From Candidatus Latescibacterota bacterium (GTDB lineage: Bacteria; Latescibacterota; UBA2968; GCA-2709665), in contig OZ242358.1 in NCBI GenBank assembly GCA_965208835.1, positions 2,368,001 through 2,432,000 on the forward strand: DNA of 64,000 nucleotides, in the 5' to 3' direction. Numbering within the stretch: the stretch's first letter is position 1; each line of letters starts with the position of its first letter. The notes under the pieces are model-generated. The model ran no database searches, was not told where the DNA came from, and saw only the letters and a list, made by a program, of their open reading frames with translations. A program made the position numbers and the translations under genes. Shown here piece by piece: positions 26,110-63,207 of this stretch.

Positions 26110-26270
26110 GCTTGCCGAAACGTGGTCATTGCCTGTGCTGAGCTTGTCGAAGCAAGCTTGTCGAAATGCCCGTGTTTCGCGATGAATCCCGATCGTACCG
26201 CGAGCCCTTCGCCGACCCTTCGACACCCTTCGACAGGCTCAGGGCAAGTGCTCAGGGAGCAGCTCAGGGC
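26110..26270 (+). repeat. inverted-pair element, copy 2, with two nested 23-nt insertions, inside the ABC operon
   Basis: Insertions at 26132-26154 and 26226-26248 relative to empty arms at 47317-47335 (reverse complement) and 19637-19655. Confidence 0.85.
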
Positions 26271-26375
26271 TGGGGCGCATTGCTGGCCTTGCGACTCAGT
26301 CACAGAATCCCGTCAAGCTGTTTTAGGGATAGAATATCGCTGCCCGTATCCACCCGTGCGCCATGAAAGTTGACC

Positions 26376-27404
26376 ATGTCCGATAGCAATTCCGTACTCC
26401 TGGACGTGAAGAACCTGCGGAAGTACTTCCCCATTACCGAAGGGTTTCTGAAACGCGTGGTGGGTCAGGTGAAGGCTGTGGACGGCGTCAGTTTTGCGGT
26501 GAAGAGACAGGAAACGCTGGGCCTGATCGGCGAGAGCGGGTGCGGCAAGACAACGGTCGGCAGGAGCATACTCAGGGCGATCGAGCCCACGGAAGGCGAG
26601 GTGCTCTTTGAGGATGGGGGAACGATGGTCGACGTCTGCCGGCTGTCGCGGAGGGAGCTGAGGACGTTCCGCAGACATATGCAGATGGTTTTTCAGGATC
26701 CGTATTCTTCGCTCAATCCCCGCATGACCGTCTTCGACATCGTGGCGGAGCCGCTGGTGGTGAACCGGATCGCACGCGGCGCCGAGCTGGAGGACCGCGT
26801 GGCGGAACTGCTCAGGGTCGTCGGGCTGGATCCGCAGTTCATGCGCCGCTATCCCCACGCGTTCAGCGGCGGCCAGCGTCAGCGGATCGGCGTCGCCAGG
26901 GCACTGGCGTTGAACCCCAGGCTGATCATCGGCGATGAACCCGTTTCGGCGCTGGACGTCTCGGTTCAGGCGCAGGTGTTGAATCTGCTTCAGGAACTGC
27001 AGGACCGGATGGGGCTCACGTATCTGTTCATTTCGCACGATCTGGCGGTGGTGGAGCACATCAGCGACCGGATCGCCATTATGTACGTCGGACAGATCGT
27101 GGAACTGGCGGACGAGGAGACGTTGTTTGCGACGCCGAAACATCCCTACACCGAAGCGCTGCTTTCGGCCGTCCCGAAGCCCGATCCGGCGTACAAGAAG
27201 CGGAAGATTCTGCTGCAGGGCGAAGTGGCCGATCCGGCCAATCCTCCGTCGGGATGCTATTTCCATCCGCGCTGCCCGTACGTGGAGGACGTGTGCCGGG
27301 AGGAGTCGCCCGAGCTCGTCGACGTCGCGCCGGCGGATTCAGACCCGCATTTCGTCCGCTGCCATTTCAGCGATACGTTAAACCTGGTCGGCATCGAAGC
27401 ATGA
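26376..27404 (+). CDS. Opp/Dpp ABC ATPase (OppF-like)
   Basis: [32 protein letters not shown]. Confidence 0.95.
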
Positions 27405-29332
27405 AAGTCTTCCGTAAAACAGCCTGCCGCACCGCGGGCATCCTCGCGAGTCCGGTCATTCTGCTCGCCTGGTTGTGTTCGCCCGCCGACGCTGAAGTGC
27501 AGGCATCTCTTAGGACGCTGAACGAAGCGCCGATGCTCAGAGAGCGCGTCCGGAACGGCCAGCTTCCCGCGTTGCGGGAGCGGTTGCCGGAGGCGCCGGC
27601 GGTGGTGCGGCCGGTGGAACGGATCGGCAAGTACGGCGGGACGTGGAGGCGGGTGCACATGGGCATGCCGGACCGGGCCGGATGGATGCGGCTGACCTAC
27701 GATCCTCTCCTGCGCTGGTCAAAGGATTACGCCAGGGTAGAGCCCAATCTCGCCCACGCCTGGGAGGTTTCGGAAGACGGCCGGGAATTCACGTTCCACC
27801 TGCGGAAGGGGATTCGCTGGTCCGACGGCGCGCCGTTCACGGCCAACGACTACATGTTCTGGTACGAAGACGTCATTCTGAACGACGATCTGAATCCCGT
27901 CAAGCCGAGCTGGCTCACAATCGCCGGCGAACTGGGCGTTGTCGAGCGGGTGGACGACCATACCATCCGGTTTCGTTTCGTGAAACCCAACGGCGTGATC
28001 CTGCAGTGGTTGGCCTCCTGGACGGACATCGTCGCCGGTCCGCCGCCGAAGCACTATCTCAAGCAGTTCCACCCCAGGTACGTTTCGAAGGAGAAACTGG
28101 ACGCCGTCGTGATCGAGGAAGGGTACGACACCTGGATGGCGCTGTACGATACCAAGAGCACCGCATTTCTGAATCCGGAACGGCCCGTGCTGTGCGCCTG
28201 GCAGGCGAGGACCGGAGCGGATGCGGCCATCTTCATCGCGGAGCGCAACCCGTTTTACTGGAAGGTGGACCCGGCGGGCAACCAGCTTCCGTACATCGAC
28301 AGGGTGGAGATGACGCTTGTGCAGAGCGCGGAGACGGTGACGCTCAAGGCCATCGCGGGCGAGATCGACATGCAGAGCCGGCGGGTCGAATTCATGAACT
28401 ACCCGCTACTGATGGAACACCGGGAGAGCGGTGGATACCGCGTCCTGCGCTGGAAGCCGGCGACCACGGGTCAGGGCACCGTGTATCTGAATCAGAACTA
28501 CACCCACCAGGACCCGGTGATGGGCGCCCTGCTCAGGAATCGCCGATTCAGACGGGCGCTGTCGCTCGGCATCGACCGGCGACAGATCATCGATCTGTTC
28601 TATATGGGAGTGACCGAGCCGAGACAGGTCGTCCCGTACACGGACGAACTGCACGGTGTGCCCAGTACCGATACACTGTACACCGTATATGATCCGGACC
28701 GGGCGAATCGTCTACTCGATGGTATCGGGCTGGACAGGCGGGACGGCGCGGGATACCGATTGCGTCCCGACGGTAAACGTCTGAAGTTCACCATCGCCGG
28801 ATTCACGCCGGGGACCGCCTACGTGGACGTGGCCGAACTGCTGGCCTCCCAGTGGACCGTGCTGGGCATCCAGTCCACGGTCAAACCCGAAGACGTGGCG
28901 CTGTGGGTGACGCGCGCCACGGCCGGCGAACACCACGTCTCCGTCTACGCTGCGTCGGGCGGGTTTCGGCCGCTGATGGATCCCGTGTGGTTCTTCCCGT
29001 CGGCGTCCACGGCGTACTGGGCGCCGCTCCACGGACTCTGGTACAGCAGCGGGGGAAGGGCGGGTGAAAAACCCACCGGGGACATCGCCCGCATCGTGGA
29101 GATCTACGAGCAGGCGATGACCACGATGGACGAAAACGAGCAGGTGGCGCTCGTGAAGCAGGCCGTGAGGATGCACTCGGAAAACCTCTGGCGAATCGGC
29201 GTGTGCGGCGGGTTCGACCAGGTGTTCGTTGTCAAAAACGATTTCCGCAACGTTCCCGAAACCGGTCTGGGCGACAACCCGCTGCTCACGCCGGGCTACA
29301 CCCATACCGAACAGTATTTCTTCGATCGATAA
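27401..29332 (+). CDS. ABC substrate-binding protein, family 5
   Basis: ATG overlaps the upstream TGA; EAPML...[32 protein letters not shown]. Confidence 0.92.
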
Positions 29333-29357
29333 AAGCCCTGCACGCGTTGGCGATAAC

Positions 29358-30275
29358 TGTCATCCAGAGGAGGCCCCCCGGGCCGACGAGGGATCTACTG
29401 CAGCATCGATTCATCAGTGCGCGACTTGCACATGTCGATACCCAATAGGCAGCACAACCCCTCCTTCTAGCACACCCCTCCTTGATCGCATTCGATTTCA
29501 CGACTGACATCTCCACGTGACGTACGTAAGGGTGGGGCAGACATTCCTGTCTGCCCACGTCAGGGTTCTTCTGTGATAATGCAGATAGACATCGTAGGGG
29601 CAGGTTTCAAACCTGCCCCTGCAAATTGGATTGTCGAGCCAGCTTTGGGTCTCGTAGGCAACACTCTGTCTCATATGCATTCGATTTCCAACTCAGAGGA
29701 CTTGCCCTGTTTGTGCTGAGCTTGTCGAAGCAAGCCTGCCTGCATTGAGCTTGTCGAAATGTCGAATGGTGACCCCCGGGCCGCCGAAGGATCTACTGCA
29801 GCATCGGAGCATCCCCGCGCGCCTTGCCCGTGGCGACACCCGAGAGGCAGCATGTCCGGCTCCTGAAGCTTCAGATACTATCTGAGTGTCTGTCATTCGC
29901 CCCACCCGCCAGCCAGCACACCCCCTCCCTTTTTCCGTTCGGTTCCCCAATGATTCCCTGATCGACCTCGCGAGAGTCGTGACGTGAAGGTGGGGCGGAC
30001 ATTCCTGTCTGCCCACGTCAAGGTTCTTCTGTCGAAATGCTGAAAGACAGCGTAGGGGCAGGTTTCAAACCTGCCCCTACAGGTTGGATTGTCGAGCCAG
30101 CTTTGGGTCTTGTAGGCAATACTCTGTTTCATATGCATCGGATTTCCAACTGCCATCCAGAGGACTTGCCCTGAGCTTGTCGAAGGGTGCCCCATGGGCC
30201 GACGAAGGATCTCCTGCCGCATGGGAGCATCCTCGCACGCCTTTCACGTGTCGATTCCCGAGAGGCAGCACAACC
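29358..30275. repeat. ~2.3 tandem copies of a ~420-460-bp mosaic of REP-like palindromes (BIME-like)
   Basis: GGTGGGGCRGACATTCCTGTCTGCCCAC at 29531 and 29989; GTAGGGGCAGGTTTCAAACCTGCCCCT at 29594 and 30052; GGGCCGMCGARGGATCT three times. Confidence 0.88.
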
Positions 30276-30985
30276 GCGTTTTCTGAGTCGCTGGTTCTAC
30301 GAGGAATCCCTGATTGCTGCTCCGGAAAACGCGGTGTGTTTCGAATCTCAGTTGCGAATCCGTGCCTCATTGAGCAAGAAAACACAGGAATTCATCAAAA
30401 AATCATCATTATCGACCAACATTTCAGTGATAATCCAACAAAAATGTTTTACTTTACCGTCCGCGCTGACGCAATTTGCAACACATTCGCTGACCATAGC
30501 GTCGTTGAATCGTCCTCGAGCGCTATCGTCCGAAGATTTGAGGCTGAATGTCGTCCCGGGATACCACGGCGCTGGGAAGCACAGAGCCACCGCTGCGGTT
30601 CAATATACAACCATCAACGCCTGTTTTCAGCCCGGCGTCCCCGTCAGGCAAACCTGACTCACCGGCAATGCTCGATAGTTCTTCCCGTCGAGAAGCCGTC
30701 TTCCTCGCTTTTCTCCTACTCTACGAATTCTATCCATCCGTGACGCGAGCCGGTAGGCGCACACGTCTGCACGTGATCGGATCAATCCGTGTGCGGCGCC
30801 GGTGTGAGTTCCCATCGGCAACCTCCGCCCGCGGCAACGCTGTCCGGGAAACGCTATCACACAGAAAATCAACCGGGAAATGCCGATGTGGATTCCGCGT
30901 GCTTCCCAATCGGAATCGGGCGGTCGCATTTCGGAGCGCACCCATTCGTGTCATCGTGCAGGTAAACGAGTCATAGGAGGCAGGT

Positions 30986-33900
30986 ATGTTGCGGAGCTTG
31001 GTTGTAACCGTATCCACGGCATTCGCGCTGGTCGGTTCGACGTGGACTGGAGACGTCGGCTTTATAAGACCGCATTCCGTTTCTGCGCAGGGTGTGTCTC
31101 ATTTGGCGGTCATTCCTGAATACGTTGAGGACCTTTCCAGCCACCCGCGTTTATTGCTGGACACCAGGATCGAGACTCCTGCGCGGAACAACAGCGTACT
31201 GACCCTTCCTGAGAAGAAGGTGGGGGAAACGATGCAACTTCAACTCTTTGCGCCGGATCTGGCGGGCCAGCAGATGTTGGGTATGGGGGTTGAACTCGCG
31301 TTGCGGGGCAAGACGTTTAGCAGCTATGTCGACGACCTGTCCTATACCGGTCCTTTTCCGCTACAGCTAGAAGCGGAGGATTCGAACCTTGTCGTAGCGT
31401 CTCTGACTGCGGTGACGGTCGCAGCCAGCGGATATCTGGGGCAGATAGACCTGGAAGCGCGGGGCGAACTGACGTCGTCGGACGCGCTGACGGTGCGGTC
31501 GGCTGAGATGGCAGGCGCAGACGGGAATGTGGAGAATCTGGACGTGTCGCAAGCGGTACTGACCTTTAGGCAGGCGCCGGCGTGTCCTGGGGATTTTGAC
31601 GGGAACGGGATGGTTAACCTGGTCGATTTTCTGGCTTTTGCACGCGGCTTCGGCACGCGTTCCGGGGATGCCAATTACGATGCGCAATTAGATATGGACG
31701 GTAGCGGCGCGGTCGATCTATCGGATTTTCTGGCCTTTGCAGGCGTATTCGGCACGACGTGCGCCGTACAGGTGTCCCCTCCCGTGACCATTCCTGATGC
31801 CAACCTGCGCGCGGTGATCGAGGACAGCCTCGGGAAAGCGAGCGGTGCACCCATCACGCGTGAAGAGATGGCGACGTTGACGCGGCTCGACGCGCCGAAC
31901 ACGGGCGTTCGAGACCTGACCGGGCTCGAGCATGCGACCAACCTGACAAGGCTGGATCTTGGCACCGTGTGGCGATCCGGCGAGGGCTGGGTCAATACCA
32001 ATAGAATATCCGACTTCACGCCCCTGTCTGGCTTGACCGGACTGCGCAGGTTGGATCTTTCCGCCAATAGCATGACGGATCTGTCTGCTCTAACTGGCTT
32101 GTCCAATCTGACAAGGTTGAATCTTGCCCAAAACAGCATCTCGAACGTTTCTGCGTTGTTTTCCCTGTCAAACCTGTGGTTTCTGAATCTCTCCGAAAAC
32201 CAGTTGAGCGGATCGATCCCCGTGGAACTGGGTCGCTTGTCCAACCTGCAATGGCTGTTGCTCAACGAAAACCAGTTGAGCGGGCCGATCCCCGCGGAAC
32301 TTGGACGCCTGTCCAGTCTACGCCATCTGTTCCTCTCAGAAAATCAGCTGAGCGGGGCTATCCCCGTGGAATTGGGCAACCTGACCAACCTGGAACGGCT
32401 GTGGCTGCAAGGGAACGATTTGAGCGGGGGCATCCCTGCGGCGCTGGGCAATGTGTCCAACCTGAAATGGCTGTACCTCTCCAACAACCAGCTGACCGGG
32501 GGGGTTCCTGCGGCACTGGGCAATCTCTCCATTCTGGAAGCGCTGACCCTCTCGGGCAACGGCGGTCTTTCGGGCGCTCTGCCCGGAACATTTACACGCC
32601 TGGATAGCCTGAGCCTTCTGCATCTTGACGGCACGGGACTGTGCGCGCCAACGGATGCGGCGTTCCAGACGTGGCTGCATGGCATCGAGAACAAAAGAGG
32701 CATCGTGAACTGCGGCAGTGGGGGCAATACATTGGTGACCATTCCTGATGCCAACCTGCGCTCGGTGATCGAGGACAGCCTTGGGAAAGCAAGCGGTGCA
32801 CCGATCACGCGTGAAGAAATGGCGACGTTGACGCGGCTCGACGCGCCGAACTCGGGCGTTCGCAACCTGACCGGGCTCGAGCATGCGATCAACCTGAGAA
32901 GGTTGTACCTTAACGGCAACCAACTGAGTGGGTCGATCCCTGTAGCACTGGGTAATCTATCCAACTTGGAACGGCTGTACCTCCACGGCAACCAACTGAG
33001 TGGGTCGATCCCTGCAGCTCTGGGTAATCTGTCCAACTTGGAACGGCTGTACCTCAACGGCAACCAACTGAGTGGGTCGATCCCGGTAGCACTGAGGCAC
33101 CTGTCCAAATTGGTATTACTGGTGCTTGCCGATAATCAGCTGAGCGGTTCGATACCATTGGAACTGGCACGCATGTCCAACCTGGAATGGCTAATACTCC
33201 ATAACAACCAACTGGTCGGGCCGATTCCCATCGAACTGGGCAGCCTGTCCAGGCTGCGGGTTGTTTTTCTCTCGGGAAACCAATTGAGGGGGGCTATTCC
33301 TTCGGAATTAGGCATGCTATCCAACCTGGAACGACTTTACCTCCATAGCAATAAGTTGATTGGCGAGATCCCGGCGGCACTGGGTGATCTGTCCAACTTG
33401 AAATCGTTGAACCTCGCCGACAACGCTTTGACTGGGTCAGTCCCCGCAGCTCTGAGCAATCTTTCCAGCCTTGAAGCGCTGACCCTTTCCGGCAACGCTG
33501 ATCTATCGGGTCCTCTGCCCGGATCATTTGCACGTCTGGACAGCCTGAGCCATCTGCAACTTGACGGAACGGGTTTGTGTGCGCCGACGGACGCGACGTT
33601 CCAGACATGGCTGACGGGGCTTGAACGTAAGATCGGCGTTGTGAACTGCACCAATGGGGGTGGGAGCGGTGGTTCGGTCGCGGGCGATCGTGCGGCGCTG
33701 GAGGCGCTGTACAGAACCACCAACGGTTCTGGCTGGACAAACGGGGCAAATTGGCTCAGCAGCAGGCCGCTTGGCGAATGGCACGGGGTCACCACGGATG
33801 CCGAAGGACGTGTGACGGGGCTGCGTCTCGCCGAGAACAGACTTAGCGGGTTCATCCCTGCGGCACTGGGTAACCTGTCCAACTTGGGTGAACTGGATCT

Positions 33901-36391
33901 CCTCCGTAACCAGTTGACGGGCCGTATTCCTGCGGAACTGGGCAATCTCACGAACCTGAGGGAATTGAATTTTCACGGTAACCAATTGACGGGCGGCATC
34001 CCCGCGACTCTGGGCAGCATCCCTGGCCTGCAACGGCTACAACTAGGCTACACCCAGTTAACGGGCTCCATACCTGCGCAACTGGGCAGCCTGTCGAACC
34101 TGGAGTCGCTGGATCTTTCCCACACCCTGTTAACGGGTCGTATCCCTGCGGAGTTGGGCAATCTCACGAACCTGAAACGGCTGGATCTTCGCGGCTCGCA
34201 GTTAACGAACGAGATCCCGTCATCGTTGGGCAATCTGAGCAGTCTCCAATACCTTTATCTCTACGACAACCAGTTGACGGGCAGTATCCCTTCGGAGTTG
34301 GGCAACCTCAGCGACCTCCGATACCTGGAACTCCAGGGTAATCGGTTAAGGGGCGTGATCCCGTCGTCGCTGGGCAATCTGCGAAATCTGCGATGGCTAC
34401 GTCTAAACGGCAACCAGCTAACCGGCGCGATTCCGTCGTCACTGGGCAATCTGAGCAACCTGCAAGAGCTGCGTCTCAACGGCAATCAATTAACGGGCAG
34501 CATACCTTCGGAGTTGGGTAGGCTCACCAACCTGGAAGGGCTGTATTTGAGTGACAACGCCGGTCTTTCGGGCTCGCTGCACGCTTCGTTCACCGGTCTT
34601 CGCAACCTGAGTGAACTGAGCCTGTCCGGCACGCGGTTGTGCGCGCCGACGGACGCAGCGTTTCAGGCGTGGATGCAAGGCATTGCGAACAGACAGGGCG
34701 TAGTGAACTGCATGGACCCCGTCGCCGAGGACCGGGCGGTTTTGGTGGCGCTGTACAACGCCACGAACGGTCCCGGCTGGACGAACAGGACGAACTGGCT
34801 TAGCGACAGGCCGCTGAGCGAATGGCACGGCGTAACAACCGACACCAACGGACGAGTAACTGCGCTGGAGCTTAATCGTAACGGTTTATCGGGTGTGCTT
34901 CCATCATCTTTGGGCAACCTGTCCAAACTGCAAGAGTTATCCTTCTTCAGGAATCAGTTGAGCGGCGCGATTCCAGTGGAATTGGACAACCTGACCAACT
35001 TGAGCTTTCTGGAGCTCTCCTTTAACCAGCTATCGGGGCCGATTCCATCGTGGGTCGGCAACCTTACCAACCTGCGATTGCTAAGGCTTAGCGGCAACGA
35101 TCTATCGGGACCGATTCCGTCTTCTCTTAGCAACCTCACGGACTTAGGCTATCTGTCAGTTTTCGGTAACCGGTTATCGGGACCGATTCCGTCGTGGTTG
35201 GGCAACCTCACCAACCTAACAGGGCTGTATATTGGCAACAACGGTTTATCGGGTCCAATTCCCTCTTCTCTGGGCAACCTCACCAAGTTGACGGGTCTGG
35301 GGCTCGATGGTCTCGGGTTATCGGGTTCACTTCCCTCATGGCTGGCCAGCCTCACCAATCTGAGGGAGTTAATCCTGAGGGATAACGCGTTTTCGGGTGA
35401 GCTTCCGTCGTGGTTGGGCAACCTCACCAAACTATACAGGCTGCATCTTTCTGATAACGCGTTTTCGAGTGAGCTTCCGCCATCTATGACCAACCTCACT
35501 AACTTGGAAGTTTTGTGGCTGCATAACACACGGTTGTGCGCGCCCACGGACGCCGCGTTCCAGACGTGGCTAGAGGGCATCGAGGACAAGCTCGGCGTGG
35601 TCAACTGCGCTATGTCCAAAATGTACTGGACAGACTATACTACGGACAAGATCCAGCGCTCCAACCTCGATGGTTCCAACGTTGAGGATATTGTCATCTT
35701 AACAAAGAGATTGCGTGGTGGTCCAACGGGCATCGCGCTGGACGTGGATAGCGGCAAGATATATTGGGCGGACTATGGGACGGACAAGATTCAGCGCTCC
35801 AACCTCGATGGTTCGAATGTTGAAGACCTCGTCACGGGATTGAGTCATTCACAAGATATCGCGCTGGACACGGGTAGACGCAAGATGTACTGGACGGACT
35901 TCGGGACGGGCAAGATTCAGCGTTCCAACCTCGATGGTTCGAATGTTGAAGACCTCGTCACGGGATTACGAGGTCCATTCGGCATCGCGCTGGACGAGGA
36001 TAACGGTAAAATGTATTGGACGGACCGGAATGCTGACAAGATTCAGCGTGCCAACCTGGATGGGTCGAATGTTGAAGACCTCGTTATAACGGGATTGAGC
36101 GATCCAGTGGGCATTGCGCTGGATCTGAGTAGCGGCAAGTTGTACTGGGGGGACGATGGTGTTGGCGCCGAGAAGCTGAAGATTCAGCGTTCCAACCTAG
36201 ACGGTTCGAATGTTGAAGACCTCGTTACCACAGGATTGAGTGATCCATTTGACATTGCGCTGGATGTGGGTAACGGCAAAATGTACTGGACGAACGGTAG
36301 CAAGATCCGGCGCGCGAACCTGGACGGTTCCAACGTTGAAGATCTCGTCACGGGATTGGGTAATTCACACGGACTCGCACTTGATATTTAA
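30986..36391 (+). CDS. secreted eukaryote-like protein: cohesin-like + dockerin/EF-hand + four capped plant-type LRR blocks + YWTD (LDL-receptor class B) propeller
   Basis: RBS AGGAGG; [16 protein letters not shown]...[13 protein letters not shown]; 24-aa LxxLxLxxNQLSGxIPxxLGNL; [12 protein letters not shown] four times; KMYWTD...[13 protein letters not shown] six times. Confidence 0.92.
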
Positions 36392-36440
36392 AGGCATATC
36401 GCCAGCAGTGCCAATGACAGTACGTGGGTCGCTTTGTCCA

Positions 36441-38357: not shown

Positions 38358-38723
38358 AGGTCAAATATCCCTCCAGTTCACTCAGTATTATCCAGGCCCG
38401 GTCTGTTCCTACATTATCGACGATTTGTATGGCATTGACAAATGGAGTTTATGTTGCTCGCTCACACGCCAATCAGTAAGAACAACAATCCCAGAGGAGG
38501 CAACCGAACCTGCTGAACGTCCGATCCTGCCATCGGATTGGGGAAGTCTCGCTGAACCGGTCTCCAGGGCTGGCGACACGACGGTGTCTTCGAAATTCAG
38601 GAAATGTGCGAGCGTACGGATCGGCATGGCTGGATCGAATCATCTGGCGAACCACGTAGAAATGATCGGGCGACGTTCCATGAACGAAATCGTCCAAGAT
38701 CCATCACCATTGGAGATTGCTGC

Positions 38724-41477
38724 ATGTTTTCGAAACGCACATCGCTGTTGATCGCCTCGTTAACGACGTTTGTTCTCGCAGGTCTGTCGTCGCTCTCCTT
38801 CGGCCAGCAGCTACGCCTGGATACGCAGATCGAAACTCCGCCGCAGAATAACAGCGCGCTGGAGTTGCCGGAAATGCAGGCGGGTGAGACCATCCAGTTT
38901 CAGCTATTCGTGCCAGGAGCAGCGGGGCGTCAGATCCAAGGATACTCGGTCGAACTGGCGCTGCGCGGCAAGACGTTCGGCAGCTATATCGACAACGTAT
39001 CCGGCGTCGATTGGAACAGTAATGCTCTTCTATCCCGGGTTTCGGCAACCGGCAATCCGACGCTGTCGATGCTGTCCATTTCTGCCGTGAGTATCCCCGA
39101 CGGCGGGTATCTGGGTCAGGTGAACCTGAGGGTGAGCAGGGCGCTCACCTCGTCGGACGTTTTTGCGGTTCAGTCGGCGTCGACTGCCGGCGCGGGAGGC
39201 GTTCAGAATCTGGACGTGACGCAGGCGGTACTGGCCTTTAGGCAGGCGCCAGCATGTCCAGGCGATTTCAACGGCGACGGGATGGTGAACCTGGCAGATT
39301 TCCTGGCCTTTGCAGGCGGATTCGGCGCCAGGTCAGGAGATGCCAACTACGATTCCGGCCTGGATATGGACGGCAGCGGCGCGATCGATCTGTCCGATTT
39401 CCTGGCCTTTGCGGGGGTATTCGGCACGACATGTCCCGTCCACGTGTCCCCTCCGGTGTCCATCCCGGACGCGAACCTGCGTCGCGCTATTGAGAACAGC
39501 CTTGGGAAGGCGAGGGGCGCCGAGATCACACGTGCCGAGATGGCGACGTTTACGAGGCTTGTGGCGGAGAGTTTGGAAATCAGCGATTTGACCGGGCTTG
39601 AGTTTGCAACCAACCTTCAAGAGTTAAACCTTAGATTCAACGACATTTCAGACGCGTCAACCTTGTCTGGGTTGACCAAGCTCACAGTGTTGGATCTATA
39701 CGCCAACAGACTTAAGGAAACGTCGCGACTGGCCGGACTGATCGACCTGAAGAGGCTTGAGCTTGGCTACAATGCCGCTGGCCCAAACACACCTCTGGAT
39801 GTCCGAGCGTTAACCGGATTGACGAATCTGAGGTACTTGGGTCTGTGGGGCAACTACCTCGTTGACTTGTCACCACTGTCAAGCTTGACCAATCTTAACG
39901 AACTGCGGCTTAGTTCCAACAGAATCGTAGATGTGTCTCCACTGGCTGCCTTGAAAGATCTCAGACTGCTGTCGCTATTTTTCAATCGGATTTCAGATGT
40001 ATCTGCGTTATCAGGACTAACCAACCTGGAGGTGCTCGAATTCAGCAACAATCGATTAGAGGATGTTACTGCACTCACCGGAATGACCAAACTGAAATTA
40101 GCGTATCTTGATGGCAATAATATCAATGACGTATCACCTTTAAGCGGCTTGATCAACTTGACGAATCTCTCTCTTGGTCGCAACAACATCAGGGACGTTT
40201 CAACCTTGAGTGGCTTGATCAGCCTGACGGGGCTGGATCTCTCATCGAATAGCATCACAGACGCCTCCTCTCTTGCAGGCCTTGTCAGTTTGTCCAAACT
40301 GGATCTTCAATACAACAGAATCCGTGACCTGGCGTCGCTGGTGACGAACGCGGGATTAGATTCGGGAGATGAAGTCGACGTGAGAGGCAATCCATTGAGC
40401 GCTACTTCCATCAACGTGCACGTCCCCGCGCTCGAGGCACGGGGAGTCAGCATTTCGTTCGATGAGACGATTGTCTTCACCGAGCCGCAAATATACAACG
40501 ACAACGTATTTGTCCTGCCCGTTACGGAAAACCTCGCCGCGGGCAATCTCCCGTTGGACGAATACGCGACGCGCTTCTACACCTACTTCAGCGATGCATT
40601 CGATTTCCTGGTTTTCTTTCCGAGTCTGACATGGCCACAACTCGATGCCGATGCGTTCAAGGGCGCATTCTATGCCGGCGTCGGGAACAATGTGGAGGGA
40701 ATCGGAAAAGGGGTTTTCTTCAACGCTGCATGGGGTTCGGCACGGAAGCTGCAGGGCGGGCTTTTTTTCGCGTTTCTTTCCGCCCCGGATTGGGAACATT
40801 CCCGGCTGGTACGGGGCCCCATGCTGCACGAGTTGATGCACCGCTGGGCGAACTTCATCGTAGAGCCCGCAGTACCTCACTGGGATTTCACGAGCGCCGA
40901 CGGCATCCTCGGTGGATTTGACATTGCCAACCTCGTCGATCGTGGCGCCGGACGTTACAGCGCCCTTGGCGCTTATACAGGAGGATGGGCACTGAACCTC
41001 AAACCCTACAGCCCGATTGAGCTGTACCTGGCCGGACTCATACCGCCGGAACAGGTGCCCGACCTCTGGGTCGCCGAGGACGGCGAAATTGTGAATCACG
41101 GGCGTGGCGATGCCCCTGACGAATTCACGGCAAGTCGTGTCAAAACGTATTCCATCGAGCATATCGTCGCCGAGCACGGGCCGCGTGTGCCCGACCATAC
41201 GCAGTCCCAGAAGGCATATCGCGCGGCGGTCATTCTACTGGTGAGCGATGACTATCCGGCAGTCCGAAAAAGCCTGGAGGCGCTGAGCAGCGATGCGACC
41301 CTGTTCAGCCACGCGGGACACGACCAAATTGACGAGTGGTACAATTTCTATGAGGCGACGGGGGGCAGGGCGACGATCGCGATGGACGGGCTGTCGCGGT
41401 TCAAGGGCACAGGCGCGTCAAAACGACCCGCGGTGCGTTCATTCGGAACACCGCCGCCGCCCCATCTGGATCATTAG
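38724..41477 (+). CDS. secreted cohesin-like + dockerin/EF-hand + internalin-type LRR + HEXXH metallopeptidase-like domain
   Basis: Signal peptide MFSKRTSLL...; N-terminus paralogous to ORF 30986; 22-aa LxxNxIxDVSxLSGLTNL repeats; MLHELMHRW; YSPIELYLAG. Confidence 0.87.
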   Translation: MFSKRTSLLIASLTTFVLAGLSSLSFGQQLRLDTQIETPPQNNSALELPEMQAGETIQFQLFVPGAAGRQIQGYSVELALRGKTFGSYIDNVSGVDWNSNALLSRVSATGNPTLSMLSISAVSIPDGGYLGQVNLRVSRALTSSDVFAVQSASTAGAGGVQNLDVTQAVLAFRQAPACPGDFNGDGMVNLADFLAFAGGFGARSGDANYDSGLDMDGSGAIDLSDFLAFAGVFGTTCPVHVSPPVSIPDANLRRAIENSLGKARGAEITRAEMATFTRLVAESLEISDLTGLEFATNLQELNLRFNDISDASTLSGLTKLTVLDLYANRLKETSRLAGLIDLKRLELGYNAAGPNTPLDVRALTGLTNLRYLGLWGNYLVDLSPLSSLTNLNELRLSSNRIVDVSPLAALKDLRLLSLFFNRISDVSALSGLTNLEVLEFSNNRLEDVTALTGMTKLKLAYLDGNNINDVSPLSGLINLTNLSLGRNNIRDVSTLSGLISLTGLDLSSNSITDASSLAGLVSLSKLDLQYNRIRDLASLVTNAGLDSGDEVDVRGNPLSATSINVHVPALEARGVSISFDETIVFTEPQIYNDNVFVLPVTENLAAGNLPLDEYATRFYTYFSDAFDFLVFFPSLTWPQLDADAFKGAFYAGVGNNVEGIGKGVFFNAAWGSARKLQGGLFFAFLSAPDWEHSRLVRGPMLHELMHRWANFIVEPAVPHWDFTSADGILGGFDIANLVDRGAGRYSALGAYTGGWALNLKPYSPIELYLAGLIPPEQVPDLWVAEDGEIVNHGRGDAPDEFTASRVKTYSIEHIVAEHGPRVPDHTQSQKAYRAAVILLVSDDYPAVRKSLEALSSDATLFSHAGHDQIDEWYNFYEATGGRATIAMDGLSRFKGTGASKRPAVRSFGTPPPPHLDH

Positions 41478-47222: not shown

Positions 47223-47355
47223 GCCGCTCCCTGAGCCGCTGTCCTGAGCCTGTCGAAGGGTTGTCGAAGGGTCGGCGCAGGGCGTAAACGAGCGCAGACA
47301 GGCCGAGTAACACGGGCATTTCGACAAGCTCAATGACCACGTTTCGACAGGCAAT
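47218..47355 (-). repeat. inverted-pair element, copy 3, with one nested insertion
   Basis: Reverse complement matches 26110-26270; nested unit at 47238-47260; overlaps the stop codon of ORF 45978. Confidence 0.85.
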
Positions 47356-52415: not shown

Positions 52416-52489
52416 CCGGGTCCCGGGCTATCGGCCGAACGAAGGACAGGCATGTTAGCTGTTTCCGGGTGTTTTTGTGCGGGGCCGGA

Positions 52490-55944: not shown

Positions 55945-55956
55945 CCTCATTTCCGC

Positions 55957-56138: not shown

Positions 56139-56154
56139 ACACCGGAGCTGCCGT

Positions 56155-56781: not shown

Positions 56782-56792
56782 AGGACGGCGGC

Positions 56793-57206
56793 ATGCAGTT
56801 TTATCAGAAACCCAAACGTCGGCCGTACATCAATATCACGTCGCTGATCGACGTTCTTTTCCTGCTGCTTACGTTTTTTCTCGTGACGACGTCTTTCATC
56901 GAGCAATCCGCATTGAAGGTGGAACTACCGTCCATGGAAAACGCGGACCGTGTCCAACAGCCGAAACGCTTTGTGCTGGATGTGGCTCCGGACGGCGGGA
57001 TCCAATACGACGGCCAGCCGGTCGAACGCGCCGCGCTGGGCGTCCGGTTGCAGACGGCTTCGGACGAGATCAACGCCTCCGGCGGCCTTGTGTTGCGCGC
57101 CGACCGTAACCTCCCCCACGGCGATGTGATGGGCGTTCTGGATATTATACGGGGAGCGGGGATCACGCGTTTCGTAATCGCGACGGCCACTACCGGTCCC
57201 GGTTGA
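56793..57206 (+). CDS. exbD: biopolymer transporter ExbD/TolR
   Basis: INITSLIDVLFLLLTFFLV, LRADRNL. Confidence 0.93.
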   Translation: MQFYQKPKRRPYINITSLIDVLFLLLTFFLVTTSFIEQSALKVELPSMENADRVQQPKRFVLDVAPDGGIQYDGQPVERAALGVRLQTASDEINASGGLVLRADRNLPHGDVMGVLDIIRGAGITRFVIATATTGPG

Positions 57207-57396
57207 AGACAGTTCAGTCAGAAAGAACGCAAACCTGCCTGATTTCCTCTTGAAGTGTGTCTTGAGGGTTCGGAAACACGGTCATAATCCAATGTATCGG
57301 CTAGCGGCTGGAGTGACCGAATACAACTGTGCCGATTGCGTGACGGTGTGCCGTCGTTCGTGCGTCAAATTGTGTGCTGCTGTATGTAGTCGACTA

Positions 57397-57557
57397 CTGG
57401 TGTCCTGTCCCGGAAATTCCTCACCATTCGACCGCCGATTCATCCTGTCTCGCTACGTTCCCCTCGCTCGCCGACCTTACACAGGTCAGTGGCGCCTCGC
57501 GAGCCAGGCGACTCGACTGTTGGATTCAGGCAACTTATTTCCGGGACAGAACACTAG
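57397..57557. mobile_element. MITE-like element, copy 1 (161 bp)
   Basis: Terminal inverted repeats CTGGTGTCCTGTCCCGGAAAT / ATTTCCGGGACAGAACACTAG; homolog at 63004-63207. Confidence 0.8.
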
Positions 57558-57584
57558 CGCGGACTGGGTTCCGCAGGGGGATGC

Positions 57585-58892: not shown

Positions 58893-61800
58893 AGCTGATC
58901 GCATTCTCGACGCGCCGTCGGGTGACGGTTACGATGTTTGTCGTCGCCGCCGTGATTTTCGGTCTGGTTGCGTTCCGTCGGCTTTCGATCAATCTGCTGC
59001 CTGATATAACGTATCCCACGCTGACCGTTCGTACCGAATACGAGGGTACGTCCCCGTCGGAGATGGAACGTCTGGTGACGGAGCCGGTGGAGGGTGCCGT
59101 AGGGGTGGTGACGAATGTCGTCCGGGTGAGTTCCACGTCCCGACCGGGAGTTTCCGAGGTGGTCGTGGAGTTTTCCTGGGGAACGGACATGGACTTCGCA
59201 TCACTGGACATCAGGGAAAAACTGGACCGGTTGCAACTCCCGCAGGGGGCGGAAAAACCGGTCCTGCTGCGTTTCGATCCATCGCTGGATCCGATCATGC
59301 GGATAGGGCTATATGGTCCCGAAGGTCTGGTCGCCCTTCGTTTGTTGGCCGAGGACCATATCAAACTGGACCTTGAAAGCCTGGAGGGCGTCGCGGCGGC
59401 ACGCGTAAACGGAGGGCTTGAAGAGGAAATACAGATTGAACTGGATGAACCCAGGCTCGCGTCGCTGCGCATCCCGGTTCCGCAGGTCGTCGCGCGTCTT
59501 GCACAGGAAAACGTGAACCTGACCGGCGGTCAACTGAAGGACGGCGAGGCGGAGTACGTCGTGAGGACTGTCAATGAGTTTCGTTCGGTGGAGGAGATTC
59601 GGGATATCGTTGTCGGAGAACGTCAGGACGCCGCGATTACCCTCGCCGACGTGGGCCGCGTCTTCAGGGGACACAAGGAGCGTAAGGTCGTCAACCGAAT
59701 GAACGGGCGCGAGAGCGTGGAACTGGCCGTATACAAGGAGGGCGACGCCAATACCGTGACCGTGGCTGCGCGGATAAACGGGGCGCTGGAGCGTATTGAG
59801 AAGGAGGCCGGCGCCTTGCCGGCCGGCACCCGTATCGAGGTGGTTTTCAGTCAGGCGACGTTTATCAGGGCGTCTGTCGCGGAAGTACTCAACACGGCAA
59901 TCATGGGCGGGGTTCTGGCCGTGCTGGTGCTTTATCTGTTCCTTGGCAATCCCGGAAGCACCGCGATAATCAGCCTTTCAATTCCGATCTCCGTCGTTTG
60001 CACCTTTCTGCTGATGTTCAGTTCGGATGTCAGCCTGAATATTATGTCTCTCGGCGGATTGGCGCTGGGCATCGGGATGCTGGTGGACAATTCCATTGTT
60101 GTACTCGAAAGCGTACAGCGGTACCGCGAGGAGGGACTGTCGCCGCCGGAGGCGACGGTGAAGGGAGCCGGTGAGGTCGGGAAAGCCGTGGTGGCTTCCA
60201 CCCTGACCACGATCTGCGTCTTCGTGCCCATCGTGTTTGTGGAAGGGATCGCCGGTCAGTTGTTCAGAGACCAGGCGTTGACCGTCACGTTCTCCCTGGT
60301 AGCCTCGCTGCTCGTGGCGCTCACCCTGATTCCCATGCTGGCGTCCTTTGACTTCGGTCGGAAGGTTGCGGCGCCGGGGACGGCAACCGGCCTCCCTCGT
60401 CCCGACTCCGCGTCGGGTCTGATAACGGGGTTGGGCATTATCCTTCGGGCGGGTAGGACGCTGGTTAAAGGGGTAGTCACCCTCCTGAGCCCGGTTTTCT
60501 GGATCTTCGAACGGGCATTGGGTGGCATATATCGAATCTACCCGAGAGTGATCGGCTGGGCTCTCGGACATCGCGCAGTAGTGCTCGTTGTCGCGCTGGC
60601 GCTTGCGGGTGTGTCGGGATTGCTGGCCGGTCTTCTTGGCAGCGAGTTGATTCCGGAGATGAGTCAGGGCGAGTTCAGTATCTCCGTGGCCATGCCGGTG
60701 GGTACCCCTATCGTTGCCACCGAACGGACGATTAGAGGCATGGAACGGATCATTCAGGCTCAGCCGGAGGTGGAACTGGTTTACTGTACCGTCGGTCTGA
60801 GCGGGTCATCCGATGGCTCCGCGGGAGAGGAGCGCGAGAACGTCGGACAGATTCATGTAGCGTTGAAAGAGGGCATTATACGGGCGCGGGAAGATGACGT
60901 AATGGATAGGCTGAGGCGTACGTTCCACGGGATACCCGCGGCAGAGTGCAAATTTGCCCGCCCTTCGTTTTTTTCATCGCGTACGCCTGTGGAGGTCGAG
61001 ATATCGGGATACAACCTCCGTACATTGCAGACGCTTTCGGATGAACTGGCACGCAGGCTGGAGGACGTCCCCGGTCTCGTCGACGTCAAGACCAGCGCGG
61101 AGGGCGGCAGTCCTGAGGTACAGATCCGATTCAATCGAAAGTGGGTCGCGCAGATGGGGACAAGCATCAACGAGATCGGCAGTCTCGTAAGGAACAAGAT
61201 CCAGGGGGAGGTGGCCACGGAGTTCGCCCAGGGCGAAAGGAAGGTGGACATTCGCGTACGTGCGGATGAACGACACCGGGCCACGGTGGAAGACCTCAAA
61301 CGTCTTATCGTGAGCCCGGCGGGCGCGTCGGCCCCAATCCCCCTCGCCGTTGTTGCCGACCTGTCTGTCGAAATGGGGCCTGCCGAGATTCTGAGGGCGG
61401 ATCAGGAGCGGGTCGCGGTCGTCTCCGCGAACCTCGAGGGACGCAGCCTGAGCGAGGCGGTGGCCGACATTGAAAACGTGATTCGTGACATGGTCTATCC
61501 TCCCGATTACCATGTCAAGATCGGCGGCCAGAACGAAGAGCAAAAGCGGTCGTTCGAGAGTATGCAGCTGGCCATTCTGCTGGCGGTATTCCTGGTATAC
61601 CTGGTCATGGCTTCACAGTTCGAGTCGCTGGTCCATCCATTCGTTATCATGTTCTCGATTCCCTTCGGCCTCGTCGGTGTGGTCTGGATGTTGCTGGCTA
61701 CGGGCCAGACGGTGAGCGTGGTGGTTCTGATCGGGCTAATTATGCTGGCGGGAATCGTCGTGAACAACGCGATTGTATTGATCGACTATATCAATGCGCT

Positions 61801-62155
61801 TCGCCGGGATCGTGGAATGGGGAAGCGCGAGGCCATTGAGCGCGCATGCCAGGTAAGACTGCGCCCCATTCTGATGACCACGTCCACGACTGTGCTTGGA
61901 TTGTTGCCCATGGCCCTTGGCATCTTCGATTTCAGGCCGTTCGTGGCAAACGTGGAATCTGGTCTGGACAACGTATTGTCCGGCGGGGCCTTGAATTACA
62001 TTATGGGTGCCCTGAACATCGTCTTCCCGGTGGGTCAGGGCGCGGAAATCCGCGCGCCGATGGCGATTACCGTAATTGGCGGCCTCGTAATCTCGACGCT
62101 GGTCACGCTGGTACTGATACCCACGCTCTATTCGCTTGTTGACCGCAAGAAATAG
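58889..62155 (+). CDS. RND efflux permease (AcrB/AcrD/AcrF family)
   Basis: GMLVDNSIVVLE, GIVVNNAIV, RLRPILMT, APMAITVIGG. Confidence 0.95.
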   Translation: MKLIAFSTRRRVTVTMFVVAAVIFGLVAFRRLSINLLPDITYPTLTVRTEYEGTSPSEMERLVTEPVEGAVGVVTNVVRVSSTSRPGVSEVVVEFSWGTDMDFASLDIREKLDRLQLPQGAEKPVLLRFDPSLDPIMRIGLYGPEGLVALRLLAEDHIKLDLESLEGVAAARVNGGLEEEIQIELDEPRLASLRIPVPQVVARLAQENVNLTGGQLKDGEAEYVVRTVNEFRSVEEIRDIVVGERQDAAITLADVGRVFRGHKERKVVNRMNGRESVELAVYKEGDANTVTVAARINGALERIEKEAGALPAGTRIEVVFSQATFIRASVAEVLNTAIMGGVLAVLVLYLFLGNPGSTAIISLSIPISVVCTFLLMFSSDVSLNIMSLGGLALGIGMLVDNSIVVLESVQRYREEGLSPPEATVKGAGEVGKAVVASTLTTICVFVPIVFVEGIAGQLFRDQALTVTFSLVASLLVALTLIPMLASFDFGRKVAAPGTATGLPRPDSASGLITGLGIILRAGRTLVKGVVTLLSPVFWIFERALGGIYRIYPRVIGWALGHRAVVLVVALALAGVSGLLAGLLGSELIPEMSQGEFSISVAMPVGTPIVATERTIRGMERIIQAQPEVELVYCTVGLSGSSDGSAGEERENVGQIHVALKEGIIRAREDDVMDRLRRTFHGIPAAECKFARPSFFSSRTPVEVEISGYNLRTLQTLSDELARRLEDVPGLVDVKTSAEGGSPEVQIRFNRKWVAQMGTSINEIGSLVRNKIQGEVATEFAQGERKVDIRVRADERHRATVEDLKRLIVSPAGASAPIPLAVVADLSVEMGPAEILRADQERVAVVSANLEGRSLSEAVADIENVIRDMVYPPDYHVKIGGQNEEQKRSFESMQLAILLAVFLVYLVMASQFESLVHPFVIMFSIPFGLVGVVWMLLATGQTVSVVVLIGLIMLAGIVVNNAIVLIDYINALRRDRGMGKREAIERACQVRLRPILMTTSTTVLGLLPMALGIFDFRPFVANVESGLDNVLSGGALNYIMGALNIVFPVGQGAEIRAPMAITVIGGLVISTLVTLVLIPTLYSLVDRKK

Positions 62156-62175
62156 GTGCCCTGGCAGGTGAGGAT

Positions 62176-62946
62176 ATGGAGTCGGGTGCGGAAAAGGGTC
62201 CTGAGGACGTCGCCTACGAGAACCGCGTTCGATCCAGTTCGCTGTCGGAACTGGAGGACATGTTCGCGCATGTGGACAGCGGGGAATACCCGCAGAGGGC
62301 GCGTGAATTGCTTGAGGAGATCGAACGGCGGCGGGCGGGTCTGGAGCGTCGGCCCGGCCGGCAGGCGCTGTCGAAGACGGCGCCGGCCGGCATGCCCCGG
62401 CGTCTCTGGGCAAGCTTGATCGATCTCTTCATTCACCTCCTGATTCTGGGTGCGTTATTTCTCGCAGGTTGGTCGGTGCTTCAGCTTGTATCGAGCCTCG
62501 GGAGCGACGGGTGGGCGGCCGCTACTGACTCAGCACGCCGGGGTCCGTCGCCGCTGCGGCAGTTCGGCGCCGGACTGCTTGCCGGCGATTCGTCGGCGTG
62601 GAAGAACGGAGAGAGGTGGTTGCAGGTGGGCCTGGTTACACTGTGTTTTCTGGTTTTCAGGGCGATGCTGACGGTGCCGGCGTGGGGGCGCGCCGGACGT
62701 ACGCCGGGAATGCGGGAGGTCGGCATCCGGCTTGTCCGGACGACTGGGGAACCCGTCGGGGTAACGCGGGCGCTGATACGGTTTTGGGGGCAGTACCTGC
62801 TATTCGGGCTGACGCTGGGCGTCAGCACCTTATGGTTGATCTGGGACCCGCGAAGGCAGTCGCTTCACGACAAGCTGTCGGAAACGTGCGTAGTGCGGGT
62901 GCGCCGCACGTGGGAAGAGACCGACGAAAACCGGATCTACGATTAG
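62176..62946 (+). CDS. RDD family membrane protein
   Basis: RRLWASLID, GRTPGM, RQSLHDKLSET. Confidence 0.85.
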   Translation: MESGAEKGPEDVAYENRVRSSSLSELEDMFAHVDSGEYPQRARELLEEIERRRAGLERRPGRQALSKTAPAGMPRRLWASLIDLFIHLLILGALFLAGWSVLQLVSSLGSDGWAAATDSARRGPSPLRQFGAGLLAGDSSAWKNGERWLQVGLVTLCFLVFRAMLTVPAWGRAGRTPGMREVGIRLVRTTGEPVGVTRALIRFWGQYLLFGLTLGVSTLWLIWDPRRQSLHDKLSETCVVRVRRTWEETDENRIYD

Positions 62947-62971
62947 GCGAGTACGGCCTGACGATTTCGGG

Positions 62972-63000
62972 TTGCCTTTCGTCGCCTATATTGTTATACT
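62972..63000 (+). promoter_or_regulatory. sigma70-type promoter with extended -10
   Basis: TTGCCT-17nt-TATACT, preceded by TGn. Confidence 0.7.
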
Positions 63001-63003
63001 GTC

Positions 63004-63207
63004 TTGGTGTCCTGTCCCAAGAATACCTCGCCATTCTCCCGCCGATTCATCCCGTCTCCCGGCGTTGCTTGTACTGAGCTTGTCGAAGTGCTTTCTCTCG
63101 CCGGCCATACGCCGGTCGGAGGCGCTGGTTTCTAAGCCGGTGGAAGGATGCGAGACGGGCGACTCGACGGCCGAATTCTGGCGACTTCATTCCGGGACAG
63201 AACGGTG
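63004..63207. mobile_element. MITE-like element, copy 2, with two nested insertions
   Basis: TGGTGTCCTGTCCC...TTCCGGGACAGAAC; about 43 bp longer than copy 1 because of inserts at 63068-63090 and ~63126-63148. Confidence 0.75.

Follow-up and report, generated by a model that had tools for sequence, protein, structure and literature searches.

A 23-nucleotide hairpin unit nested in its own copies and in other repeats of a Latescibacterota genome is probably a non-autonomous insertion module

We analysed a 64,000-nucleotide (nt) stretch of DNA, hereafter the window, from a Candidatus Latescibacterota bacterium (assembly GCA_965208835.1, contig OZ242358.1, positions 2,368,001 to 2,432,000), whose genome (G000) is a single 5.18-Mb contig, 97.8% complete, with a G+C content of 59.5%. 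The window contains several copies of a 23-nt unit that consists of a 4-nt leader, a 3-nt stem, a 13-nt core (TGAGCYTGTCGAA) and 3 nt complementary to the stem, and these copies lie within other copies of the unit itself or within other palindromic repeats. An initial annotation made from the letters alone had read the unit as an ultra-short mobile element. It located the copies at 26132-26154, 26226-26248 (minus strand), 30165-30187, 47238-47260 and 63068-63090 and a decayed copy at 63126-63148 correctly, and its list lacked three exact cores, at 19589, 19640 and 47320. In the list below, the typical upstream flanks of A-type and B-type units are TGGT and CGCT, respectively, host C is a hairpin related to the unit, host D is an IS630-derived miniature inverted-repeat transposable element (MITE), and a caret marks an insertion point.

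26123..26168, plus strand: interrupted outer A-type unit, tggt CAT TG^AGCTTGTCGAA ATG, from the family of 44 CAT/ATG units
26132..26154, plus strand: 23-nt unit, CCTG TGC TGAGCTTGTCGAA GCA, inserted after base 2 of the outer A-type unit
26226..26248, minus strand: 23-nt unit, CTTG CCC TGAGCCTGTCGAA GGG, after base 5/6 of the outer B-type unit at 26216-26261
29357..29400, plus strand: empty host-C hairpin, catccagagga^ggccccccgggccgacgagggatc
29701..29769, plus strand: composite in a host-C hairpin, with the outer unit CTTG CCC TG^AGCCTG^TCGAA tGG and two inner 23-mers
29710-29732: inner 23-mer, TTTG TGC core GCA, at site 2 of the outer unit at 29701..29769
29739-29761: inner 23-mer, CCTG CAT core ATG, at site 8 of the same outer unit
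30165..30187, plus strand: single 23-nt unit, CTTG CCC core GGG, in the host-C hairpin catccagagga^...^tgcccc
47237..47260, plus strand: 24-nt insert, C GCTG TCC TGAGCCTGTCGAA GGG, after base 5 of the outer B-type unit at 47225-47271
47317..47339, minus strand: uninterrupted A-type unit, tggt CAT TGAGCTTGTCGAA ATG, the convergent partner of 47225-47271
57400..57556, plus strand: empty copy of the MITE (host D), the reference for both insertion positions
63068..63090, plus strand: unit CTTG TAC core GTG, at position 1 (acgtTG^CC) of the IS630-derived MITE at ~63005-63207
63126..63148, plus strand: decayed unit TGGT TTC TAAGCCGGTGGAA GGA, at position 2 of the same MITE
19582..19604, plus strand: unit CGGA CGC core GCG, at the tip of a long hairpin within the ~205-nt repeat at 19512-19715
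19637..19659, minus strand: B-type unit CGCT CCC core GGG, the convergent partner of 19582-19604

The insert at 26132 has unambiguous boundaries: its junctions permit no shift and display neither a target duplication nor microhomology, in keeping with the earlier claim that the target is not duplicated. The outer unit that it interrupts (26123..26168) forms the tip of a long hairpin (cgaaacgtgg...cccgtgtttcg). Excision of the unit at 26226..26248 restores a core (genome position 2394229), and the empty paralogues of the unit at 30165..30187 are shorter by 22-24 nt. The outer unit of the composite at 29701..29769 is divided into three segments (29701-29709, 29733-29738 and 29762-29769). Three units are indeed present there, as had been proposed, but the two inner ones lie side by side and do not form a three-level nest. 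Similarly, the insert reported at 47238-47260 was placed correctly but is really 24 nt long and starts at 47237, and at position 2 of the MITE the net gain is 21 nt, with 2 nt replaced. The decayed unit at the latter position aligns column for column with intact TGGT TCC core GGA copies, and the empty MITE copy folds as a long terminal-inverted-repeat hairpin (z = -3.9).

A comparison of filled and empty orthologous sites, which the initial annotation had proposed, revealed both states at 26132, 26226 and 47237. The orthologue of the 26132 locus reads ggtcatTG^AGCTTGTCGAAatg without interruption in both G002 (L007) and G013 (L008), and that of 26226-26248 reads cccTGAGCCTGTCGAAggg, again uninterrupted, in G013. 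In the closest genome, G011, whose flanks at 47237 are ~96% identical, ctcccTGAGC^TTGTCGAAggg occurs without the 24-nt insert. Since this empty state corresponds to the family consensus, the insert is the derived state; its inner core has C where the host has T in both genomes compared (G000 and G011). The unit at 63068 is common to the window and G011, and the entire MITE is missing from G009 and G006.

Larger presence/absence differences were found for the ~390-nt repeat block at 25980-26375, which sits between two ATPase genes of an oligopeptide-type ATP-binding cassette transporter operon. The same block separates the ATPase genes in G002 and G013, and it is absent from G011, G009 and G006, which have 5-20 nt in its place. 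In contigs of related strains from four sequencing runs, which cover 19300-30500, the block is missing or replaced by 21 (run X6) or 142 (run X10) letters. G004 and G005 carry an unrelated AGGATTA-rich block of 400-500 nt at this place.

These states also bear on the possibility that the nested copies are assembly artefacts at repeats, as might be suspected from the breaks of short-read contigs of related strains at the repeat blocks. Against this, the source genome is a single contig, the filled and empty states lie within well-aligned unique flanks, and nested forms are present in the independent assemblies G011, G009, G006, G015, G021, L101, L110, L123 and L126. Given this recurrence, an artefact is excluded for practical purposes, and we regard it as extremely improbable.

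The core was found 10 times in the window, compared with 0.16 times in dinucleotide shuffles. A genome-wide search for it, as suggested in the initial annotation, returned 145 exact copies in the 5.18-Mb genome (79 on the plus strand and 66 on the minus strand), with insert lengths peaking at 23 nt. Other one-mismatch variants of the core number only 26, and the reversed genome, which served as the control, contained no exact core and eight one-mismatch matches. The variable base of the core is T in 98 copies and C in 47. When the motif was generalised to TGAGC-N4-CGAA, enrichment in G000 was seen only with the centres YTGT and CTGC; the B-type outer sequence keeps the TGA...GAA frame around a different 4-bp helix, GCCG/CGGC.

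The 3-base flanks of the core pair with each other in 134 of the 145 genome copies when G.T is counted. CCC/GGG (60 copies) and CAT/ATG (44) are the commonest stems, followed by TCC/GGA (8), TGC/GCA (7), CGC/GCG (3) and CAC/GTG (3), other types being rarer. We aligned the stems of 98 distinct units taken from the window, relatives, unrelated genomes and viral contigs. In this alignment, 76.9% of the stem cells paired, compared with 55.1% after shuffling, and the covariation score was 0.562, compared with 0.194 after shuffling and 0.04-0.14 in slid controls. None of 500 shuffles reached either value, which confirms the stem covariation first noticed in the window. On the core strand, G.T pairs exceed A.C pairs in the stems (39 to 16, p = 0.003).

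The ends of the unit are asymmetric. The leader is fixed at 4 nt and varies in sequence (CTTG, CCTG, CTCG, CGGT, TGGT, CGCT and others); CYTG is identical to the core at bases 5-8, and A-type units are preceded by TGGT and B-type units by CGCT. As judged from these identities, the leader would be the donor's upstream flank, carried along with the unit. At 47237, the insert bears the B-type leader CGCT inside a B-type host.

The length of the insert was examined using a flank-pair test, in which 45 nt on each side of every unit were used to locate paralogues in the genome and the distances between the flanks were compared. Length differences of 0 nt and 23 nt predominated (212 and 219 pairs, respectively), followed by 21 nt (96), 24 nt (35) and 22 nt (11); all 96 pairs at 21 nt came from one position of one MITE, and mirror peaks at -22 to -24 represented paralogues holding an extra unit. 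At least one empty paralogue was found for 36 of the 145 units. We also removed segments of 17-29 nt at all offsets relative to each core and checked the resulting junction for a complete core. Excision of 23 nt at offset -7 rebuilt a complete core in 18 of the 145 units, whereas any other length did so in 0-3; the lower numbers of rebuilt cores at the offsets next to -7 arise because some junctions are ambiguous. With two mismatches allowed, 23-nt excision rebuilt 44 of the 145, compared with 4-8 for excisions of 21, 22, 24 or 25 nt. The added cases were B-type units inside a diverged outer core, TGAGCYCGGCGAA; a search for the uninterrupted form of this outer core (GAGCYCGGCGAA) gave 15 matches, all coding-like, and no empty B-type site. 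Together with the empty sites in congeners, the 23-nt flank pairs and the rebuilt cores confirm the earlier observation that removing an insert restores a sequence found elsewhere.

As had been suggested, other palindromic repeats are preferred targets, above all the centre of the unit's own core, where the cut sites lie after base 2 (TG^AGC), after base 5/6 and after base 7/8. The site after base 2 was occupied in three cases, every inner stem being TGC/GCA, and TGC/GCA units were found at no other site. Inner and outer units were co-oriented in all 18 nests and inverted in none (binomial p = 8e-6 if the events are independent). The inner and host units have unlike stems or Y bases in 16 of the 18 nests. 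Local duplication is therefore not favoured, in agreement with the initial annotation, which had cited stem differences as an argument against slippage. Core-free hosts, namely positions 1 and 2 of the MITE and the host-C hairpin, also receive units, which is further evidence against local slippage. In all, at least 10 distinct combinations of host, site and insert were observed, each with an insert of 23 nt plus or minus one.

Most of the 145 copies have multiplied passively with larger carriers, the IS630-derived MITE and composite hairpins, so that independent insertions number only roughly a dozen; from the distinct combinations of host, site and insert, we estimate ten to twelve in the material seen. 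The MITE (host D) is ~160-180 nt long and is present in 63 full copies, of which four carry a unit at position 1; position 2 holds a unit in nine, in addition to decayed ones. Its ends, tggtgtcctgtccc... and ...gggacagaacacta, resemble the termini of a DDE_3 (IS630-like) element at G000:4436227-4437406, which explains the MITE but not the 23-nt unit. Host C is a hairpin of the form catccagagga^ggcccc...gacgaaggatc, in which the AGAGGA...GACGAA frame resembles the core, and its copies in G011, G009 and G006 occur in empty, single and multiply nested states that follow the same grammar as in the window. Some of these copies are unbalanced, with, for example, three left halves to a single right half, and such lopsided arrays are best explained by slippage deletion between the direct repeats that nesting creates. 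With regard to the suggestion that an enzyme gene might be flanked by units, the genes bracketed in this way were only tandem paralogues separated by host-C hairpins (MacB/FtsX permeases at G000:205.9-214.2 kb and Kelch proteins at 248.3-252.2 kb), and no transposase was among them.

Two longer kinds of repeat in the window contain the elements described above. The ~205-nt repeat at 19512-19715 holds convergent A-type and B-type units and adjoins a tRNA gene (19295-19367, minus strand); it recurs at many places in every genome of the genus with 73-92% identity. The region 29350-30260 consists of ~430-nt repeats, each of which opens with a host-C hairpin and also carries a perfect palindrome, aggggcaggtttcaaacctgcccct (~29598-29624 and ~30056-30080). 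The copy number and nesting state of these ~430-nt repeats vary between congeners.

We then considered how widely the unit is distributed. All 14 other genomes of the genus are carriers, with 39-154 copies of the core, compared with 17 copies in a sister genus and 1-3 in three further genera of the family. Among 12 genomes of the neighbouring family, 40 copies were found in G021 only and 0-2 in the others, a patchy distribution that is as expected of mobile DNA. The same nesting recurs in G021 and G015 and includes an onion of four levels, with TGAACCCTGAGCY four times and TGTCGAAGGG four times.

A scan with CTGAGCYTGTCGAAG found at least 125 loci in a genome collection and at least 129 in a viral collection, the chance expectation for this motif being ~2,200 matches in 596 Gb; the following statements refer to the matches listed, 157 in genomes and 139 in viral contigs. 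Both free stem pairs were Watson-Crick in 125 of the 157 genome matches (9.8 by chance), with 9 stem types, and in 88 of the 139 viral matches (8.7 by chance), with 13 stem types. According to the record titles, the carriers belong to Bacteroidota, Pseudomonadota (alpha-, beta- and delta-proteobacterial titles and several gamma-class genera), Cyanobacteria, Chloroflexota, Actinomycetota, Planctomycetota, Acidobacteriota and lineages of the candidate phyla radiation. The common cross-phylum form is CCGTTCG-stem-core-stem, a spacer and an inverted partner ending in CGAACGG, with the stem of each arm complementary to itself. In Sphingobium replicons, the proteobacterial form is found between genes, in DNA without annotation, at as many as 18 places in one record and with no associated gene. 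Exact self-nesting was found in 4 of 158 units in genome contigs (L101, L110, L123 and L126) and in 0 of 139 viral units. Thus, among the matches listed, the core is not specific to G000 and occurs across phyla, and self-nesting is confined to a few lineages.

Three further arrangements were seen at the cross-phylum loci. A contig of a cyanobacterial metagenome-assembled genome (L035) has the core within a 24-nt period that is repeated three times head to tail; this arrangement is tandem, not nested, and accounts for the restorations at 24-29 nt in the excision test of public contigs. At L127 and other loci, a second hairpin type, with the TGAGC....CGAA frame and another 4-nt centre (e.g. gtcattctgagcgcagcgaagaatc), adjoins core units. 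A TGG/CCA-stem variant (tggttcgacaggctcaccacgaacgg) is a common partner arm in proteobacterial loci.

The near-invariance of the core across phyla, together with the covarying stems, would also suit a hairpin that is primarily a conserved functional site, such as a protein-binding, RNA-processing or termination element, and that was duplicated as a side effect of selection for sites. Consistent with this, units lie mostly outside long open reading frames (ORFs): 36 of 145 fall within an ORF of at least 900 nt, compared with 77% of random positions, although the test is noisy at this G+C content (59.5%). The commonest arrangement is a convergent (+,-) pair with a spacing of 40-120 nt (31 in the genome), and one block lies inside the oligopeptide-transporter operon, between its ATPase genes. 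However, the presence of 40 copies in one of 12 related genomes and of 0-2 in the rest is unlike a conserved host function, and whole blocks are present or absent between strains with no visible consequence. No Rfam family accounts for the unit either. At Rfam 15 gathering scores, the window yields two tRNAs only and no match for the unit, which led us to reject it as a known structured RNA. At an E-value threshold, both strands of 11 cross-phylum loci gave only sub-threshold matches to generic long hairpins (microRNA families and AaHKsRNA41, the latter with 43 bits against a cut-off of 97), which we read as hairpin noise. Finally, function alone would leave the exact 23-nt inserts in foreign hosts unexplained. 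We therefore judge a primarily functional site to be improbable.

We consider it probable that the 23-nt unit is a real, discrete, non-autonomous insertion module that is, or has been, mobile. Several results weigh against this interpretation. No read-level sign of ongoing movement was obtained, and the contigs of the four runs break at repeats and are informative on whole blocks but not on single 23-nt units. When a 347-kb contig of G011 was compared with the syntenic region of G000 (25 blocks, 293,698 aligned columns, or 294 kb), the unit accounted for only one of 29 indels of 17-60 nt, namely the 47237 insert, and about a dozen MITE-sized gaps of ~175-200 nt were found between the blocks in either genome. 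The unit thus moves, or moved, rarely. Rebuilt outer cores have A or G at base 6 in 8-9 cases, compared with 3 of ~170 free cores with a purine there, so the exact cut points are not fully understood. The filled MITE copies share one stem type per position (nine at position 2, four at position 1) and are therefore not independent, and what looks like repeated insertion at one site can arise by gene conversion among repeat copies. As DNA, the 23-mers did not fold better than shuffles in nearest-neighbour calculations (z -1 to +0.7), and the complementary strand of a 41-nt A-type hairpin folds better than the core strand. The profile of Y1_Tnp (the RAYT family of transposases, Pfam PF01797) had no match in G000 and did match control genomes, and RVT_1, the TnpB zinc ribbon, IS110 and DDE_Tnp_1 had no match in the complete G000 genome.

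Several of these points would fit a history without any dedicated mobility, in which a few founding template-switch or repair events at hairpin tips were followed by ectopic gene conversion, MITE transposition and slippage. Such a history needs no enzyme, and no candidate was found in the G000 genome. One subtype per site (TGC/GCA after base 2 and one stem type at each MITE position) is what conversion would leave, the highly similar repeat carriers supply the homology for it, the lopsided arrays of three left halves and one right half show slippage and deletion at work, and unit indels are rare relative to MITE indels. Conversely, template switching would not be expected to fix the length at 23 nt plus or minus one in at least 10 combinations of host, site and insert. 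The junctions at 26132 have no microhomology, the inner core at 47237 has C against T in the host in both genomes compared, and the same 23-nt grammar recurs in distant lineages. On balance, we regard this history as rather unlikely.

If the unit is indeed a mobile module, an existing unit would be copied along with the 4 nt that precede it, and the copy would be placed in a new site without duplication and in the orientation of the target. It would preferentially enter related hairpins and the core of another unit, the latter at its centre (after base 2, 5/6 or 7/8), and insertion into its own core would produce the onion-like nests. After insertion, most copies would multiply passively with the IS630-derived MITE and the composite hairpin repeats.

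The strand reading TGAGC...CGAA may fold as a single-strand hairpin, in which the 3-bp stem would be extended by T1-A13, sheared G2.A12 and A3.G11 and G4-C10 to give a seven-step helix with the loop CYTGT. Tandem sheared G.A pairs follow rules for a pyrimidine-GA-purine context, and on this basis UGAG/CGAA may form a tandem sheared G.A clamp; the complementary strand would carry pyrimidine mismatches in place of the sheared pairs. The TGA...GAA frame that B-type outer sequences retain around GCCG/CGGC also bears on this fold. The co-oriented nesting (18:0) and the excess of G.T over A.C (39:16) suggest that the unit may be recognised as folded single-stranded DNA or RNA, as the initial annotation had proposed. 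A 3-bp stem on a 13-nt loop is not stable in nearest-neighbour folding, and standard folding gives the clamp no credit. Because of this unstable standard fold and the better fold of the opposite strand of one long A-type hairpin, the strand assignment is tentative. Local folds around the host-C and MITE insertion points were likewise no better than shuffles.

A trans-acting protein would then read the hairpin and perform or guide the copy-in. A copy of the hairpin and its 4 upstream bases would enter hairpin tips that are exposed as single strands; given that RVT_1 had no match in the genome, this probably happens at the level of DNA. We put this mechanism forward tentatively and with appreciable doubt. 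In agreement with the earlier statement that the window encodes no mobilising enzyme, a Pfam scan of 35 of its 41 called ORFs found no transposase, nuclease or reverse transcriptase. Weak partial Y1_Tnp matches were present in 8 of the 14 congeners, and the Y2_Tnp profile had no match in G000 or in the control, which makes this negative uninformative. G000 does encode four rve, two DDE_3 and one Transposase_mut gene. The mobilising protein would not be a RAYT/IS200 Y1, Pfam-RVT_1, TnpB or IS110 enzyme encoded in G000. A reader of the cross-phylum hairpin is probably widespread. That NNN-TGAGCYTGTCGAA-N'N'N' is the recognition element of a widespread single-strand nucleic-acid enzyme, either host housekeeping or phage-delivered, which copies the 23-nt cassette into hairpin loops in some lineages, is a more speculative proposal that we hold to be doubtful.

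Among known systems, the closest parallel is with the small dispersed repeats (SDRs) of Nostoc punctiforme and its relatives, described by Elhai and colleagues in 2008. SDRs are reportedly 21-27 nt long, form hairpins with compensatory changes, lie within miniature transposons and nest in their own copies, and an RNA intermediate is said to have been proposed for them. The 23-nt unit resembles this class in its length and covarying hairpin (0 of 500 shuffles), in its nesting in itself (18 of 145 exact) and in an IS630-derived MITE (two positions), in encoding no protein, in a mobilising activity that is not known for either and in its lineage-restricted burst. In contrast, it belongs to another phylum, its sequence is presumably unrelated, its core also occurs un-nested across many phyla and in viral contigs among the matches listed, G000 has no RVT_1 match that would correspond to an RNA intermediate, and filled and empty orthologous sites are seen directly for the 23-nt unit. 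By description, the unit appears to work like an SDR and is at most an analogue of this class, not a member, because the lineage differs; the comparison is with the description of SDRs and not with their sequences. According to passages in two papers, HIP1 is a site of SDR5 insertion, and SDRs occur only in Nostocaceae (PMC3116915, PMC5861425).

The unit shares with repetitive extragenic palindromic (REP) elements and their REPIN doublets the form of a short intergenic palindrome, a 4-nt leader before the 5' foot of the hairpin, convergent doublets (31 in this genome of 145 copies), the lack of target duplication and the strand-specific behaviour expected of single-strand transposition. REP elements and REPINs have a GTAG or GTGG (or CGTC) tetranucleotide at the 5' foot, and the RAYT gene is usually flanked by repeats. 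To our knowledge, REP sequences are species-specific, and we know of no REPs nested in their own loops. The leaders of the unit (TGGT, CTTG, CGCT, CGGT, CCTG and others) are never GTAG, GTGG or CGTC, and its core is shared across phyla. Passages in the literature describe REP elements and REPINs as mobilised by RAYTs, which are IS200/IS605-like Y1 transposases (PMC3116915, PMC3733652), and G000 has no Y1_Tnp match. With no RAYT gene found and no GTAG leader, the unit was rejected as a REP or REPIN in the RAYT sense.

With IS200/IS605 elements, the unit has in common the lack of target duplication, a fixed orientation to the target (18:0), dependence on a hairpin and asymmetric ends. Such elements require TnpA as well as a pair of dissimilar subterminal hairpins that together span ~100 nt. 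Neither TnpA nor TnpB was found in G000, and the orientation of the units relative to replication (81 vs 64) is not significantly biased; with neither Y1 nor TnpB found, an IS200/IS605 derivative was rejected. Like a MITE, host D being the example, the unit is non-autonomous, dispersed, intergenic and present or absent between relatives, but a MITE has terminal inverted repeats matching a parent element that carries a transposase, and the unit has neither such repeats nor such a parent. With no terminal repeats and no duplication at unambiguous junctions, it was rejected as a MITE. A retro-mobile element was set aside because no RVT_1 match was found in G000, RVT_1 being the only such profile used. 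Integron attC sites, transposon excision footprints and ectopic CRISPR spacer integration were rejected on sequence or architecture alone, and Xer/dif-like sites because integration there would yield tandem, not nested, sites. In the open-access literature, to which our search was directed and which excludes subscription journals and supplements, no paper naming the core was found by motif or by SDR-type names; matches to the DNA motif or to short translation strings were primers and unrelated text only.

Elsewhere in the window, the regions 3589-9696, 30986-36391 and 38604-41477 contain very large ORFs with abundant DUF285, Calx-beta, leucine-rich and LDL-receptor class B repeats. Sequencing runs with close relatives of the window are labelled as sponge or marine metagenomes, and no RNA run is listed among them.

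The feature is real and unusual, and mobility is the best available interpretation of it, although the unit is rarer in action than its copy number suggests. If this interpretation is true, the unit is one of the smallest mobile-looking DNA units known, and if a 23-nt cassette can be copied to new sites, the lower size limit of mobile DNA lies far below MITEs. The only earlier proposal of such tiny mobile cassettes is that of the cyanobacterial SDRs in 2008. If a single-strand enzyme does read the hairpin, the unit would represent cross-phylum, protein-less mobile DNA about one-tenth the size of a MITE, with a mechanism unlike the described transposition pathways. It is also a cleaner system than the SDRs, with one dominant unit, exact 23-nt gains at orthologous loci and a simple site grammar in its own core. 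This, together with the existence of related genomes with and without the burst (G021 and its 11 congeners), makes phylogenetic profiling for the enzyme feasible. In practice, the units give rise to spurious ORFs and to breaks in short-read assemblies, and they remodel the intergenic regions of operons.

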